Shown here: positions 1,603 to 40,550 of the stretch, piece by piece
Numbering within the stretch: the stretch's first letter is position 1
Layout: each line of letters starts with the position of its first letter
Source of the DNA: Candidatus Kerfeldbacteria bacterium
Lineage (GTDB): Bacteria; Patescibacteriota; Patescibacteriia; SBBC01
Length of the DNA: 48,480 nucleotides
Assembly (NCBI GenBank): GCA_016204585.1
Contig: JACQKH010000051.1
Coordinates: forward strand, 1-48,480
Reading direction: 5' to 3'
Made by a program: the position numbers and the translations under genes
The notes under the pieces: generated by a model
Database searches by the model: none
Told to the model about the DNA's origin: nothing
Seen by the model: only the letters and a program-made list of their open reading frames with translations

Positions 1603-1647
1603 CGCCTGCCCGCCGTACAAAGTACCTTTGTACTTTGGCAGGCGGGG
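1603..1647 (+). repeat. GC-arm hairpin element (CCTGCCCGCC ... TTTGGCAGGCGGG) with an inner GTACAAAG-TAC-CTTTGTAC hairpin
   Basis: Arms at 1605-1614 and 1634-1646 are identical (10 and 13 nt) to the sequences flanking the nested tRNA-Val at 20250-20259 and 20152-20164, which lie on the opposite strand. Confidence 0.6.
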
Positions 1648-1680: not shown

Positions 1681-4104
1681 CTACCCGCACTTCGAAAACC
1701 CGCAATTGTGGCATTTCATGCAGCCCTCAGCGATCTCGAGCATGCTTCCGCAGTCCGGGCAGGCCGGCGCATAGCCGACGTTCGCCACCGACATTCTCTT
1801 GGCGGTTGTGACCGCGGCCGGCGTCACCTCGGCCACCGCTGTCACGGAATCACCCTTCGGCTTCAGGTCGAGCTGCGGCTGTTTCCGACCTAAATGTTTC
1901 TGCAGAATCTTGGCGATTGCGTCAGGCAAGGACAGGATTTGCCCGCCGTCATGCCAAGACACGTCCGGCCCGCGGATCCCTTTGATCTGATCAACGATTT
2001 CTTTCGGCGAGATGCCGGAGCGCAAGGACAGCGAAATCAGACGGCAGATCGATTCGGACTGGGCCGCAAAGAACCCACCGTTCTTGCCGATGGTGGCGAA
2101 AACCTCGAATGGGCGTCCATTCTCGTCGTCGTTGATGGTTATGTAGAGCGAACCGTACGGCGTGTTCACTTTATAGGTCGTCCCTTTGAGAAGTTCTGGA
2201 CGGTGGCGTGGCCCAAAGCCGTTGGTCGTTACGACTGCTGGTGCTGGCTTCTCCTGGCCGACCAGCACGGTCTTGCCGGTGGTCAGCACCTGCTCGTCCC
2301 GGCTGCCGTCGCGAAAGATGGTCACGCCCTTGCAGCCTAGTTCGTACGCCAGCTCATAGACCTTCCGCACGTCCTCTTCAGTCGCCTCGTGCGGGAAGTT
2401 GACAGTCTTGGAAATGGCGTTATCAACGTATTCCTGGAAGGCGGCTTGCATGCGGATATGGTCTTCGGGTGTGCAGTCGGCGGCGGTTACGAACATCTTC
2501 TTCCACTTGTCCGGTATCTCGTCGAACTTCTGAATCGAACCCTCGTAGGCGATTCGCTCCATCAGTTCTGGCGAGTACCATCCCTCTTGCTTAGCGATCT
2601 CCTCGAACTTCGGGTGCACGTAGACGAGCGACGTGCCGTCCATGACCGTTTTGGTGAAAACGATGGCGAACAACGGCTCTAGGCCGGAGCTGCAATCAGC
2701 GATCATCGAAATCGTGCCGGTCGGCGCGACGGTCGTGCGGGCCACGTTCCGCATTGGCACGCCCCTTTTCTCATCGTCCGAACCAGCATAGTTGGGGTAG
2801 TTGCCGCGGGACTTGGCCAGTTCGGTCGAGGCGCTGGCGGCTTGGTCGGCGATGAACTTCATCATCTTCCGACCCATCTCCAACCCGGCCTTCGAATTGT
2901 ATGGAATACCCAGCTCAATCAGCATGTCGGCAAAACCCATCACGCCCAAACCAATCCGTCGGTTAGTCAAAGTTTTCTCGGCAATCTGCGGAATCGGGTA
3001 GCGGTTCATGTCAATGACATTGTCGAGAAAGTGAACGGTCTGCCACGCTACTTTCTTCAAACGCTGCCAGTCTACCGCGGCTTTGCCGGACTTTGTCTTT
3101 TTCACGAACTGGCCGAGATTGATGGAGCCCAAATTGCAGGAATCGTAGCCGGCCAGCCACTGCTCGCCGCAGGGGTTGGTCGCTTCGAGCACCTCCACAT
3201 GCCGAGCGGGGTTGATGGCATTGGCCCGATCAATGAATAGGACGCCGGGATCGCCGGTTAACCAGGCATGATGGATAAGGAGCTTCCAAATTCTCTCGGC
3301 GGGCAACTGCCCGGTCACGCTGCCGGTATGTGGATCAACCAGGTCGTACATCCCTTTTTTCCTCAAGGCCTCCATGAACTTCTCAGTCGCCGCCACCGAA
3401 ATGTTGAAATTCTTCATCTCGTTCAAATTTTCCTTGATGGTGATGAACTGGAGGATGTCGGGATGATCAATATGGAGCACACCCATGTTGGCGCCGCGTC
3501 TGGTACCGCCCTGCTTCACGATCTCCGTGGCCATGTTAAAAATCCGCATGAAGGAAACCGGGCCAGAGGCCACGCCGTGCGTAGTCTTCACCAGACTCCC
3601 TTTCGGCCTCAAGCGGGAGAAAGAAAAACCAGTGCCGCCGCCGGACTGGTGAATAATGGCCTGGTGTTTCAACGATTCGAAAATTCCTTCGATTGAGTCT
3701 TCGACCGGCAGCACAAAACAAGCCGACAGCTGCTGGAAGTCGCGTCCGGCGTTCATCAGGCACGGGGAGTTCGGTAGGAAATCACGACTGGCGATTAAAC
3801 GGAAGAACCCCTCCTCGGTTTTCGCCACTCTCGCCGGTGAGGCCCCATACCGCGCATCCGCTTGAGCGATGTTGTTGGCCACCCGCCGGAACATGTCGAT
3901 TGGCTTTTCCGCTGGTTTGCCGTCTTTCTTCTTTAAGTACCGTCGTTCCAGAACCTTGATGGCATTGGCGCTCATGTCGGCGAGAATCGAGTCGTCCATC
4001 AGCTTCTGATTTTCCGTTAGCGCCTCGGATAGGATCTTGGCAAGCTTTTTCTCATTTACCGACTGGGTCGAAATGAGTTTATGAGAGCGGGCTGAACCGT
4101 TCAT
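1681..4104 (-). CDS. nrdJ: Adenosylcobalamin-dependent (class II) ribonucleotide reductase
   Basis: N-terminus [34 protein letters not shown], catalytic-core motifs ([15 protein letters not shown]), C-terminal Zn ribbon [21 protein letters not shown]. Start set to ATG 4102-4104, 13 nt after the nrdR stop; the longer ORF-track start overlaps nrdR. Confidence 0.9.
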
Positions 4105-4117
4105 ACGATGCGAAATG

Positions 4118-4609
4118 TTAGTTGTTCTTTGTTCGTCGCGGATTTTTTGGACGCTGCCGACCGCGCTGGAAAAGCTGAAGCTCGTTCCAGAAACTCTCGG
4201 CATCCGTGAAAGACCGATAAACCGAGGCAAAACGGATGTAGGCGACCGGATCAACCTTCTTCAAACGCTTCATCACGATCTCGCCAATCTGATGAGAGGT
4301 GATCTCGTTCCGACCCCGGAGTTGGATATCCCGTTCGATGATGTTGAGGAGCCGCTTGAAGCTTTCGTGGGTAATCGGCCGTTTTTCGAAGGCTTTGCGC
4401 AGGCCGGTTTCCAGCTTTTCCCGTGAATAGGGCTCTTGGCGGCCATCCCGCTTAACCACAGTCAGGTTGAGGATTTCTACCTCTTCGTAGGTGGAAAAAC
4501 GAAATCCACACCTCAAGCACTCCCGGCGGCGGCGGATTGCCACTGCCTCGTTCACCATTCGGGTATCAGTGACTTTTGTGTCAATGTTGTGGCACGCTGG
4601 ACAGCGCAT
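4118..4609 (-). CDS. nrdR: Transcriptional repressor NrdR (Zn ribbon + ATP-cone)
   Basis: MRCPACHNIDTKVTDTR...RRRRECLRCGFRFSTYEEVE is the canonical NrdR N-terminus. It lies immediately upstream of the RNR gene. Confidence 0.95.
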   Translation of the reverse strand: MRCPACHNIDTKVTDTRMVNEAVAIRRRRECLRCGFRFSTYEEVEILNLTVVKRDGRQEPYSREKLETGLRKAFEKRPITHESFKRLLNIIERDIQLRGRNEITSHQIGEIVMKRLKKVDPVAYIRFASVYRSFTDAESFWNELQLFQRGRQRPKNPRRTKNN

Positions 4610-4937: not shown

Positions 4938-6113
4938 TCACATCATTTTTTTTCGTATAAAAGCCGGAATTTCAAGGTCCTCTTCCTCTTTGGTTTTGTC
5001 TGAAGGTTTTGGAGTTTTTGGTTGAGTCGCTGGCGCAATAGTTGGGCGGCTGGACGCAGTCGAGAAGGCCGGGTACGGTACTGAGGCGGCCGGTTCAGGC
5101 ATACCAAAGCTCATGGGGCCCTGGGCGCCGATTTTCCTTACGCCTTGACGGCCCTCTCCCTTACCGAAACCGGTCGCGATAACCGTGATTTTTATTTCGT
5201 CTTTCAAGCTCTCGTCCACCACCGCGCCGAAGATGATCTTGGCGTTCGCATCGGCTGAGCTGGTGATGACTCGGGCGGCTTCGTTGACCTCGTACATGCC
5301 CAGGTTCGGACCGCCCGTGACCGTAAACAGAATGCCTTTGGCGCCGTCAATTGCCAGTTCGAGCAGGGGGGAATCAATCGCCGCTTTGGCTGCTTCCACC
5401 GCTCGGTTTTCGCCGCCCGCTTGGCCGATACCCATCAAGGCCGAACCCTGATTCTCCATGATCGCCTTGACGTCGGCAAAATCAACGTTGATCAAACCGG
5501 GGACGGTGATCAGTTCGGCAATGCCTTGGACGCCTTGGCGGAGAACATCATCGACCGTATCGAAGGCGTCAACCAGTGACGTCTTCTTGTCAATTATCTG
5601 CAGTAAGCGATCGTTCGGAATGGTGATGAGCGTATCAACCTTGTCGCGGAGTTCGAGCAACCCCTGTTCACCGATTCGTTGGCGTTGGGCGCCTTCGAAG
5701 CTGAATGGTTTTGTGACGACGGCCACGGTCAGCGCGCCGACGTCTTTGGCAATTTGCGCGATGATCGGGGCGGCGCCGGTGCCGGTGCCACCACCCAAAC
5801 CGCAGGTGATAAAAACCATGTCGCTGTTTTTCAGCGCGTCATGGAGCTCGTCGGCGTTCTCTTCGGCCGCTTTCTTGCCCAGCTCCGGGTCCATCCCGGC
5901 CCCCAGGCCCCGCGTCGTCATCTTGCCGATGTGAATCTTCGCCGGGGCGGCGTTGTGATGCAGGGCTTGGGCATCCGTGTTGATGGCGATGAATTCAATT
6001 CCCCGGATCTTCGAACGCATCATCCGATTCACCGCCGATCCGCCGGAGCCCCCAACGCCGAGGACTTTAATCTTGGCAAAAGTTTCAATTTCCGGTTTGA
6101 CCTCAGTCGGCAT
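4938..6113 (-). CDS. ftsZ: Cell division GTPase FtsZ
   Basis: [13 protein letters not shown] and [12 protein letters not shown] tubulin-signature motifs; acidic/basic C-terminal peptide [11 protein letters not shown]. Confidence 0.97.
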
Positions 6114-19968: not shown

Positions 19969-20051
19969 TTTTCACTACCTACTGTTAGTTTCCGATTTAT
20001 CAGACCTTCCTGGAGGAGTGAACCCCTCGGCCATCCTCTAGCCATCACTGC

Positions 20052-20100
20052 TGGCCACTGCCCCGCCCGCGGCGGGACGACCTCGCCGATCTACCCGCTC
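20052..20100 (-). pseudogene. 3' remnant of a third tRNA-Val copy (T arm replaced by a CCCGCC-GCG-GGCGGG hairpin)
   Basis: The 13-nt CGACCTCGCCGAT (20088-20100) equals 20198-20210 of the intact inner tRNA-Val. TGGCCACTG (20062-20070) equals 20174-20182. The 15-nt T arm between them is replaced by 17 nt of GC hairpin. Confidence 0.45.
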
Positions 20101-20112
20101 GCTGGTGGTCGC

Positions 20113-20297
20113 ACCTGGGCTCGAACCAGGGACCTTACGGACCCGCCTGCCAAAGCGGACTGGTGGCCACTGCTGGATTCGAACCAGCGACCTCGCCGAT
20201 GTGAACGGCGCGCTCTAACCAGCTGAGCTAAGTGGCCGCGGCGGGCAGGTGTGAACCGTACGCTCTAACCAACTGAGCTATGCGACCGTGGCGTAAA
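20113..20297 (-). tRNA. Interrupted tRNA-Val(CAC): two perfect halves separated by 108 nt at position 37/38
   Basis: 5' half (20297-20260) is GGTCGCA-TA-GCTC-AGTTGGTTA-GAGC-G-TACGG-TTCACA. 3' half (20151-20113) is T-CCGTA-AGGTC-CCTGG-TTCGAGC-CCAGG-TGCGACC-A-CCA. All four stems are fully Watson-Crick. Whether it is functional or a pseudogene is unknown. Confidence 0.55.
20171..20247 (-). tRNA. tRNA-Val(CAC), intact, CCA encoded
   Basis: GGCCACT-TA-GCTC-AGCTGGTTA-GAGC-G-CGCCG-TTCACAT-CGGCG-AGGTC-GCTGG-TTCGAAT-CCAGC-AGTGGCC-A-CCA is a perfect cloverleaf. Confidence 0.88.
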
Positions 20298-20438
20298 AAT
20301 TTGAGAAGCGCCCCCTGCCCCGCACTTGCGAGCGTTAACGAGTATAGTTCGGGGTAACCAACTGCTTGCCCCGTACCACCCCGACCTCTCGGCCGCGAGC
20401 TCGAAGCCGAGCGGGCATAGTCGAGGGGTTGGTGCAGG

Positions 20439-20451
20439 GAGCTAAGTGGCC
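20439..20451 (-). pseudogene. 5' remnant (acceptor + D-stem, GGCCACTTAGCTC) of the third tRNA-Val copy
   Basis: 13-nt exact match to 20235-20247, which is positions 1-13 of the inner tRNA-Val. Confidence 0.4.
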
Positions 20452-20675
20452 AAGCATCTTCCAGTGCCGTCAATTTAATAATTGCAATAATTGCTAAGAT
20501 AAGCGCAAAACATGGACATGATACCATCTTTTTTCAGAAAAATCAAGCTTCCTAAAGCAATACAGTTGATTTTGTGAACTGGGACGAATCAAAGAGCACT
20601 GATCAATCACAAAAGGGGCTATTGACGATAATTCCACGGCTACCCTATACTTTCCCCAACGGCACGCACTTACCC

Positions 20676-40066: not shown

Positions 40067-40143
40067 TGGTACCAGGGGTGGGATTCGAACCCACGACCCC
40101 GGGCTTATGAGTCCCGTGCTCTAACCAGCTGAGCTACCCTGGC
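40067..40143 (-). tRNA. tRNA with CAT anticodon (elongator Met or Ile2), CCA encoded
   Basis: GCCAGGG-TA-GCTC-AGCTGGTTA-GAGC-A-CGGGA-CTCATAA-GCCCG-GGGTC-GTGGG-TTCGAAT-CCCAC-CCCTGGT-A-CCA. G1-U72 wobble and an A31-G39 mismatch are noted. Confidence 0.82.
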
Positions 40144-40418
40144 ACGACCTGATTTGTATCAGCTTTTAGGTAGTTGCGCAACATTTGTTTAAGCGTGGTT
40201 TTGCCTTTGGTGGTTTTGAAGTAGCGCCCGCGGCGTTCGGCGTCCTGTTTGTTGAGAAATGATTCAAAGAAGATCGACGCGAATGGTCGGCGCTGCGCGG
40301 TTGAAACTGTTTGTCCAGCATTGTGCCAGCGTAAACGATTAACTACATTTTGACTCAGGCCGATGTAGAATTTCCGGTCTTTGAGACTTTGTAATGCATA
40401 CACATGAAACCATGGCAT
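40134..40418 (-). CDS. GIY-YIG nuclease family protein (YhbQ/UPF0213-like)
   Basis: MPWFHVYALQSLKDRKFYIGLSQNVVNRLRWHN...RRPF...E.F....A..RE.Y.K. AGGAGA lies 6 nt upstream of ATG 40416-40418. The last 10 nt, including the TAG stop, lie inside the tRNA at 40067-40143. Confidence 0.85.
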   Translation of the reverse strand: MPWFHVYALQSLKDRKFYIGLSQNVVNRLRWHNAGQTVSTAQRRPFASIFFESFLNKQDAERRGRYFKTTKGKTTLKQMLRNYLKADTNQVVPG

Positions 40419-40550
40419 GGTATATCTCCTAGTGCCACCGAATGTCTTGTTGTTGCCATGTACCATTCGTCTAGCCCCGTTCATTACCTTAGCAACCCCA
40501 GTTTTTAAGATGTTGCGCCAGCAATGAACCTGAGCGAAGCGAATGGTTCA

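Follow-up and report, generated by a model that had tools for sequence, protein, structure and literature searches.

A tRNA gene within a tRNA gene

The window analysed here is a 48,480-nt stretch of contig JACQKH010000051.1 from a Candidatus Kerfeldbacteria bacterium (assembly GCA_016204585.1). At about 20 kb it carries, on the minus strand, a complete tRNA-Val(CAC) gene, here called allele B, lying within the anticodon loop of a second tRNA-Val(CAC) gene, allele A (Table 1). An earlier note on this DNA described the nested arrangement correctly but set all of its coordinates 10 too high. Its reading of the parts stands: the 5' half of the outer gene ends at nt 37, the break falls between nt 37 and 38, and the 108-nt insert holds an intact 77-nt tRNA-Val(CAC) with its own CCA, called by ARAGORN and Rfam (69.5 bits). 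Once joined, the two outer halves are called as a full 77-nt tRNA-Val(cac) with 21 Watson-Crick pairs.

Short arms flank the inner gene within the insert; as RNA they can pair at 9 of 10 positions, one G-U among them, as had also been noted, and as DNA they are terminal inverted repeats that match at 8 of 11. On the native sequence both programs report the inner tRNA only, and the intron mode of ARAGORN does not call the outer one. The predicted fold of the whole 185 nt is a nested double cloverleaf (-78.3 kcal/mol, z = -2.06) in which the arm helix is stacked on the outer anticodon stem; where the two helices abut, 6 nt are left unpaired on one strand and 1 nt on the opposite strand.

Table 1. 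Features of the nested tRNA-Val locus, of the older shell around it and of related sequences elsewhere in the window
Feature	Position	Strand	Basis or remark
Outer tRNA-Val(CAC), allele A, 5' half (nt 1-37; 38 nt), GGTCGCATAGCTCAGTTGGTTAGAGCGTACGGTTCACA	20250..20287	-	Identical to intact A of L001 and L022
Whole insert, 108 nt (left arm, inner tRNA, trailer and right arm)	20249-20142	-	Read from sequence
Left arm, CCTGCCCGCCGC	20238..20249	-	Same 11-mer opens cassettes in L013, L028 and L142 and in numerous metagenome contigs
Inner tRNA-Val(CAC), allele B, complete, CCA encoded	20161..20237	-	ARAGORN and Rfam, 69.5 bits; presumed working gene
Trailer GTCCGC and right arm TTTGGCAGGCGGG, together GTCCGCTTTGGCAGGCGGG	20142..20160	-	Read from sequence; motif enriched in window
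Outer allele A, 3' half (nt 38-76 and CCA; 39 nt), TCCGTAAGGTCCCTGGTTCGAGCCCAGGTGCGACCACCA	20103..20141	-	tRNA call on rejoined halves; empty-site alignment
Promoter-like site: TTGATT, 17-nt spacer, TG-extended TATCAT	20518..20546	-	Upstream of entire nested locus
Shell 5' fragment GGCCACTTAGCTC: acceptor 5' strand and D-stem 5' strand of a B-type tRNA-Val	20439..20451	-	Exact 13-nt match to inner tRNA nt 1-13
Hairpin insertion, 74 nt, between shell 5' and D-loop fragments	20365-20438	-
Shell D-loop fragment CAGTTGGTTA	20355..20364	-	Collinear with nest
Shell 3' anticodon-stem and variable-loop fragment ATCGGCGAGGTCG	20078..20090	-	Exact 13-nt match to inner tRNA nt 38-50
GC hairpin TCCCGCCGCGGGCGGGG in place of shell T arm	20061..20077	-	CCCGCC/GGCGGG arm-type motif
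Shell acceptor 3' strand CAGTGGCCA, then GCA	20049..20060	-	CCA at this place in relatives
Second arm-motif copy without tRNA: CCTGCCCGCCG, 18-nt hairpin, TTTGGCAGGCGGG	1605..1646	+	Intergenic, between ribonucleotide reductase 3' end and NUDIX gene
Small GIY-YIG nuclease open reading frame fused to tRNA-Met	40134..40484	-	Candidate class of driver; link to the 20-kb nest hypothetical

Empty sites and the origin of the inner allele

The orthologous locus, a comparison that the earlier note had proposed, holds an intact and uninterrupted allele A in three relatives (L001, L006 and L022; compared loci and contigs are cited by such handles). Aligned to these empty sites, the window shows one gap of 108 columns, between ...GGTTCACA and TCCGTAAGG...; the junctions are exact, target bases are neither duplicated nor lost, and there is neither a direct repeat nor microhomology. 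The insert is therefore derived, having entered precisely and without target duplication. Joined, the outer halves match the intact tRNA at the same locus at 77 of 77 positions in L001 and L022, which cannot be put down to chance; allele A in L006, L007 and L010 carries 2-3 substitutions.

Alleles A and B share 60 of 77 positions, and those of the 17 differences that lie in stems are all compensated. Allele B agrees at 75 of 77 positions with the only tRNA-Val that L003 has at its lepB locus, so it is foreign to this place but of a native type, and not a local copy of A. Its origin by duplication of A in situ was ruled out on the same grounds. The inner allele of L013 likewise matches the native allele of other lineages, a point that would matter for tRNA evolution if the replacement account given below is right. 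In L004 the arms flank an A/B chimera, of a kind that would arise by recombination between layers.

Older layers around the nest

Neither the recurrence of the arms as a conserved motif nor their second copy at 1605-1646 was part of the earlier description, and the same is true of the tRNA-like shell (20451-20049) in which the nest itself lies. The GC hairpin that stands in place of the shell's T arm has conserved equivalents in L001, L005 and L006, and the same shell surrounds a working tRNA in these three and in L010. In these relatives it keeps acceptor pairing (pair 5:68 being A-T, G-T or G-C), the hairpin that replaces the T arm and a terminal CCA; in L005 it also retains an anticodon arm with CAC. 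The shell is recognisable across genomes whose LepB proteins are only about 70% identical. Such layered pieces around the nest indicate that the locus has been invaded repeatedly, in the manner of a Russian doll. Splicing of the shell into allele B was considered and ruled out, as the shell here has neither T arm nor anticodon loop.

Several smaller features accompany these layers. An equivalent of the promoter-like site, TTGAC..TGGTACAAT, occupies the same place in relatives. Just past the promoter of the tRNA-Val/lepB/hisS unit, at about 20492-20508 (-), lies a conserved short leader hairpin of the TTGCGCTAAGRTTAGC type (TTGCGCTTATCTTAGCA in the window); it stands at the same place in L001, L004-L007, L010, L013, L022 and L026 and is kept even where there is no nest. 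AT-rich boxes resembling -10 elements (TTTTTA, TATTAC, CATAAT) occur at 20288-20320 of the window and at equivalent places in L001, L005 and L006. They precede the working or outer tRNA by 7-17 nt, lie within an otherwise GC-rich shell and may be internal promoters imported by an earlier cassette. A 99-amino-acid open reading frame (ORF) at 20228-20527 (-), overlapping nest and shell, has no Pfam match and is probably spurious.

Recurrence of the arms

The earlier note treated the nest as a single case, a view that did not hold, since arm-flanked nests recur for many tRNAs. The same arms stand at 37/38 of differing outer tRNA-Val alleles, around differing cargo tRNA-Val, in L013, L028 (twice) and L142, and in inverted order in L012. 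Metagenome contigs were scanned for CCTGCCCGCCG followed, after 70-100 nt, by GCAGGCGGG; matches above 60% G+C were mostly chance occurrences in coding DNA and were discarded. The low-GC contigs that remained carry arm-flanked tRNAs for Val(CAC, GAC, TAC), Arg(CCG, TCG, CCT), Trp, Thr, Leu(CAG), Cys, Gly(CCC), Ile(TAT) and Glu(CTC), each lying inside an outer tRNA of the same type except in L192, where the outer copy is too altered to read. Bacterial markers (lepA, murB, pilM, yifB) are present on several of the nest-bearing contigs.

Arm copies also occur in other genomes of the GTDB, in further metagenome contigs and in two contigs of a viral collection. Within the window, the TTTGGCAGGCGGG motif has 2 matches against 0.10 expected by chance. 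Rfam searches around the nest and the 1605 hairpin, at the gathering score and at E up to 1, returned tRNAs only, a sub-threshold antisense match to a plastid untranslated-region model being dismissed as chance. When the viral collection was scanned with a strict arm pattern of tRNA size there were 0 matches, and with a looser pattern 24, all of 55-74% G+C and none with a tRNA; there is thus no evidence that phages carry tRNA cassettes. A short-loop pattern found two bare arm hairpins in IMG/VR, with loops of 5-8 nt (L086 1385-1414 and L087 2353-2385), on contigs that have no Rfam match; one of the two immediately precedes a ribosome-binding site and its start codon.

The arms resemble palindromes made of tetranucleotide repeats. 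Arrays of arm-like hairpins with varying numbers of CCYG/CRGG units are found in L183, L200 and L207, and a repeated unit of L191 contains two arm-flanked elements of 99 nt (2439-2538 and 4035-4134) that are identical to each other and lack a tRNA. In L047 a 66-nt arm-like palindrome (CCCGCCCGCC...GGGCGGG, 5094-5159) lies in frame within yqeY, recalling the Rickettsia palindromic elements of protein-coding genes. Arm elements that are bare or carry other cargo tend to sit in the loops of other hairpins, as in L034, L165 and L196.

This distribution bears on two ways in which the nest might have come about with no element of its own kind. Because the contig derives from a metagenome and tRNA genes are repeats between strains, an assembler might have fused two tRNA-Val alleles from co-assembled strains. 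Joins would then be expected at shared sequence, without the addition of 12 and 19 nt of arm that belong to neither tRNA, and the same arms and architecture would not be expected in many independent assemblies made with different assemblers; we regard such an artefact as extremely unlikely. Alternatively, the nest could stem from local rearrangement and gene conversion among tRNA-Val copies, or from transformed DNA that integrated illegitimately, the arms being a common processing or terminator hairpin that by chance stands beside tRNAs in these genomes. The A/B chimera of L004 and the 13-nt identities between shell and allele B are typical of recombination, arm hairpins occur alone in intergenic DNA as repetitive extragenic palindromic (REP) or terminator elements do, and the window contains dprA. 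Yet unrelated outer alleles show the same arms at the same exact junction (..CACA|CCTGCCCGCCG), as do nests with many other anticodons; the junctions show no duplication, deletion or microhomology, and insertion is limited to loops. This combination would not come from random rearrangement, and an origin of this sort is accordingly unlikely.

Rules shared by arm-flanked nests

Common rules were sought in 19 arm-flanked tRNA nests representing 13 anticodons. The inner tRNA is a clean cloverleaf in all of them. With the cassette taken out, 12 of the 19 yield an outer tRNA that ARAGORN can reconstruct and that shares the anticodon of the cargo, the other 7 outer copies being decayed or multiply inserted; four more are of the same type when read by eye (L094, L116, L142 and L190). 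Decayed outer copies are found in L012, L028 and L142.

The break always lies in a loop (D, anticodon, variable or T) and never in a stem. Within the anticodon loop it falls at 34/35, 35/36 or 37/38 in ARAGORN structures and, by eye, at 31/32 in L116; elsewhere it falls in the D loop, at 56/57 of the T loop or in the variable loop. Cassette families hold their site, as Val(CAC) with forward arms does at 37/38 and Arg(TCG) at 35/36 in L115 and L182. Inner and outer tRNAs always point in the same direction, while the arms, relative to the tRNA, are forward in 11 nests and reversed in the other 8. In no nest do the inner and outer tRNAs have the same acceptor stem, not even where their bodies match completely, as in L152.

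Cargo and host are associated. Of the 41 arm pairs examined in low-GC DNA, removal restores a host tRNA for 14, every one of which has tRNA cargo (14/14); the remaining 27 pairs, without tRNA cargo, have no tRNA host, so that in this set no arm element lacking a tRNA lies inside an otherwise intact tRNA gene. Extra bare hairpins are found only in outer tRNAs, in the T loop of L093, the D loop of L094, the variable loop of L113 and also in L109 and L130; none of the inner tRNAs of the 19 nests has one.

A probable replacement cassette

Taken together, these observations make it probable that the 108-nt insert is an arm-flanked replacement cassette of a kind that recurs in Patescibacteria, with allele B as the working gene and allele A as a fresh relic. 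That the same anticodon is shared, that only elements with tRNA cargo have tRNA hosts and that extra hairpins gather in outer copies alone is what would be expected if the interrupted gene were dead and its place taken by the cargo. A recent insertion that brought its own replacement was one of three explanations offered in the earlier note, and it is the one that the empty sites, the same-anticodon cargo, the restriction of tRNA hosts to tRNA-bearing cassettes and the decay of outer copies favour. The inner tRNA would thus be functional and the outer one dead. From the window alone, B is presumed to be the only intact tRNA-Val(CAC) of the genome.

On this account, a cassette with allele B would have entered at the DNA level between nt 37 and 38 of the resident allele A. 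A single promoter, at 20546-20518 and upstream of lepB-hisS, would transcribe the whole locus, and the arm helix together with the distinct acceptor stem of the inner tRNA would insulate the folding of B from the homologous outer halves; since the inner tRNA would then fold independently, the normal tRNA-processing enzymes could release it. The nest would be the latest layer at a repeatedly hit locus, whose older, B-like shell had already been disrupted by hairpins and when A arrived. In the family at large, arms built of CCYG/CRGG units would either form bare hairpins in the loops of non-tRNA hairpins or carry a tRNA into the loop of an isoacceptor. Selection would tolerate insertion into a single-copy essential tRNA gene only when the element supplied that tRNA, after which the dead outer copy would be free to gather further insertions. 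The occurrence of the arms in both orientations argues for an element that acts at the DNA level or by structure alone, and against sequence-specific recognition of the arms in RNA.

The earlier note had argued from the perfect preservation of the outer halves against an old pseudogene. That argument is sound within its limits, but it says little about function; outer copies seem to degrade by further insertions and not by point mutation. The perfect state of A would seem to mark only a recent event, outer copies in general seeming to decay through insertion and recombination.

Could the outer tRNA still be made? It might be functional at the RNA level, either as an intron-bearing precursor cut at the base of the arm helix and joined by an RtcB-type ligase, or as a split tRNA whose halves remain clamped by the arms after RNase P and 3' processing. 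No insertion lies outside the D, anticodon, variable and T loops, and a full cloverleaf is retained by 12 of the 19 outer tRNAs; the constant difference between inner and outer acceptor stems would aid the folding of a nested precursor, and the fold predicted for this nest is cleanly that of two cloverleaves, the arm helix being stacked upon the anticodon stem of the outer one. RtcB homologues are moreover common in Patescibacteria, and at 321-3137 of L093 a full-length RtcB gene is directly followed by one for a beta-CASP/RMMBL ribonuclease, on the same contig as an Arg(CCG) nest and murB. Against this, the junction has no bulge-helix-bulge, nt 32-35 (UUCA) pairing with intron positions -6 to -3 (GGCG) at 2 of 4 positions; its loop is asymmetric, with 6 nt facing 1 nt, and other nests break within the anticodon itself (34/35 or 35/36). 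The arms occur in both orientations. An intron or clamp could do with any cargo or none, yet the cargo is an isoacceptor wherever the host can be read and bare arms are never seen in an intact tRNA; extra hairpins accumulate in outer tRNAs and never in inner ones; and a tRNA that retained a 10-bp helix in its anticodon, D or T loop would, by textbook knowledge, be unable to decode. The scanned ORFs of the window include neither RtcB nor a splicing endonuclease. A functional outer tRNA is on balance improbable. The other two explanations in the earlier note, a split tRNA like those of Nanoarchaeum and a new kind of intron, lack support for the same reasons and are unlikely: the junctions have no bulge-helix-bulge, the arms stand in both orientations, and neither explanation accounts for the isoacceptor match. 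We give little credence to the specific form in which a protein-dependent bacterial system of intron or split-tRNA processing, with cutting at the arm base and RtcB, would draw two isoacceptor alleles from one transcript; were it real, bacteria would have their first example of tRNA splicing that depends on protein.

Several observations nevertheless weigh against a replacement cassette. No enzyme is tied to the arm cassettes; the 108-nt element has no ORF, and no integrase or transposase is among the window ORFs scanned. All 19 tRNA cassettes are in tRNA hosts and none is in a non-tRNA hairpin, a pattern for which selection alone is insufficient; with the host of the same type wherever it can be read, targeting would depend in some manner on the cargo, or else on a dedicated enzyme. 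The loop-only sites and the 12 intact outer cloverleaves among the 19 could also stem from selection acting on the outer RNA. Finally, the related Arg(TCG) cassettes of L115 and L182 share the site 35/36 within very different, well-paired outer tRNAs, for which homologous recombination would be insufficient and either site-specific insertion or selection on the outer tRNA is needed. The restriction to loops could result from structure-specific insertion into hairpin loops of single-stranded or cruciform DNA, or from selection on the outer RNA.

tRNA-adjacent GIY-YIG nucleases as candidate drivers

The only nuclease-type genes seen near these loci are small ORFs of the GIY-YIG family (about 90 amino acids, PF01541), homologues of which occur widely among Patescibacteria and Omnitrophica. 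All six such ORFs that were found in roughly 1 Mb of fetched DNA adjoin tRNA genes, and in four (those of the window, L023, L052 and L192) the TAG stop codon coincides with nt 8-10 of the next tRNA, so that cleavage by RNase P would strip the stop codon from the mRNA. The window has, in order on the minus strand, tRNA-fMet (40622-40551), a hairpin leader (TGAACC...GGTTCA), the GIY-YIG ORF (40484-40134) and tRNA-Met (40143-40067); the same fMet-GIY-Met order is found in L233, from the same metagenome-assembled genome (MAG) as L001.

Some of these ORFs lie in or beside nests. In L052 one occupies the anticodon loop of the outermost tRNA-Val shell and is followed by a D-loop nest; in L113 one lies downstream of a Trp nest; and in L232, the context of a homologue of the window ORF, an old tRNA-Gln is split by a new tRNA-Gln, a hairpin leader and a GIY-YIG ORF. 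Such nucleases are, speculatively, a candidate class of drivers of tRNA-gene insertion: cassettes would spread by homing-like insertion, with DNA arriving by natural transformation (dprA being present in the window). There is, against this proposal, no nuclease gene in or beside the 20-kb nest, and the GIY-YIG nests L052 and L232 are without canonical arms, so that the two kinds of nest may be unrelated and the link to a nuclease is hypothetical.

Genomic setting

The gene order around the tRNA is conserved in relatives. On the minus strand its neighbours are hisS, lepB (signal peptidase I), a HIT-family gene and yqeY; the plus strand carries an LCP-family gene, pth and mfd. The nearest LepB homologues are 70-73% identical, the named ones belonging to MAGs of Candidatus Kerfeldbacteria or Patescibacteria; an exact look-up of the window LepB protein matched no second contig. 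tRNA-Val(CAC) lies directly upstream of lepB in 40 of the 80 species-representative genomes fetched, and at least 8 of these 40 loci contain duplicated tRNA-Val pieces.

The remainder of the window is ordinary chromosome, with genes for ribonucleotide reductase, ftsZ/ftsA, dprA, topA and parAB. The ORFs scanned across the 48 kb include no integrase, recombinase, transposase or RtcB, and no splicing endonuclease was seen among them, no search having been aimed at EndA. In the large-subunit ORF of ribonucleotide reductase (1681-4254, -), the barrel domain is matched in two separate stretches and a TSCPD domain lies at the C terminus.

Significance and comparison with known systems

If replacement cassettes are real, tRNA genes of Patescibacteria would be replaced by a mechanism that is, so far as we know, undescribed: a palindrome-armed cassette bearing a foreign allele of the same tRNA enters a loop of the resident gene, and relic layers build up around the working copy. 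Annotation is affected as well, in that standard tools report the inner gene only and miss the nesting. For the study of mobile DNA, the cassettes would offer a case of exact, duplication-free insertion into hairpin loops, with a possible tie to tRNA-fused GIY-YIG nucleases. Several familiar systems share part of this behaviour.

Archaeal tRNA introns, introns that transpose and the split tRNAs of Nanoarchaeum and Thermoproteales have been summarised elsewhere (PMC10714607). They resemble the nests in their canonical and non-canonical loop sites, in GC-rich complementary arms of 10-14 nt and in the mobility of the introns. They differ in that they need a bulge-helix-bulge and EndA and contain no tRNA, and the host of the nest is a bacterium, with pth, mfd, lepB and an LCP protein flanking the locus. 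The junctions give no support to an intron or split tRNA of the archaeal type, as no bulge-helix-bulge (two 3-nt bulges with a 4-bp helix between them) was found when they were inspected by hand. Group I introns in the anticodon loops of bacterial tRNAs also insert exactly and without target duplication, but are at least about 200 nt long and have a conserved ribozyme core (P3-P9). The insert, with 77 of its 108 nt being tRNA and with no Rfam match to such an intron at the gathering score or at E up to 1, is not one of them, as the earlier note had concluded.

Integrative elements that target tRNA genes, such as prophages and islands, likewise insert into a tRNA gene, often in the anticodon or T loop, and preserve a functional tRNA beside a displaced relic. 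These are kilobases long, encode a tyrosine integrase, duplicate a core as direct repeats and substitute no more of the tRNA than its 3' part. The cassette, at 108 nt, has neither an ORF nor direct repeats; its cargo is an entire tRNA, and the two halves of its target remain outside it. An element of this class was rejected for the lack of a direct repeat at the junctions and of any integrase or recombinase domain in the window ORFs scanned.

Homing offers a further parallel. SegB of phage T4 is a free-standing GIY-YIG homing endonuclease in a phage tRNA cluster that cuts the rival allele and promotes inheritance of the adjacent tRNAs. In the genomes considered here, there are GIY-YIG ORFs that are fused to a tRNA gene and that stand within or next to nests; the differences are that no nuclease gene is in or near this nest and that SegB does not yield nested genes. 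Of what characterises a homing element, the exact insertion into a conserved gene is present at this locus, while the GIY-YIG ORFs lie outside this element, in or beside the nests L052, L113 and L232.

Two classes of transposable element were also set aside. A miniature inverted-repeat transposable element (MITE) or other derivative of an insertion sequence (IS) would have the terminal inverted repeats seen here, but no target-site duplication is apparent against the empty site. The absence of target duplication is shared with the IS200/IS605 type (no search was made for a Y1 transposase); that type was rejected because the two ends pair with each other and do not form separate hairpins, and because the 5' flanks are not fixed (CACA, CCGG, CTTC, TCTG, GTTC, GATA and others).

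There is also a likeness to short palindromic repeats. REP sequences and bacterial interspersed mosaic elements (BIMEs), Rickettsia palindromic elements (RPEs) and MITEs are, like the arms, short GC-rich inverted repeats in many copies, mostly intergenic and in some cases genic; the arms differ in enclosing variable cargo that includes whole tRNAs, in entering hairpin loops and in causing no target-site duplication. We know of no RAYT or transposase partner for the arm elements. The arms fit a palindromic repeat family of the REP/RPE kind, which does not cover the tRNA cargo and the same-anticodon rule; to our knowledge, no such family carries tRNA genes or targets isoacceptor genes. Nor do we know of a description of complete tRNA genes nested in the loops of tRNA genes with the same anticodon, and a limited search of the literature on the candidate phyla radiation found mention of rRNA introns and none of nested tRNAs. 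Set beside these systems, the nest at 20 kb apparently exemplifies an undescribed, recurrent kind of tRNA-gene replacement cassette.

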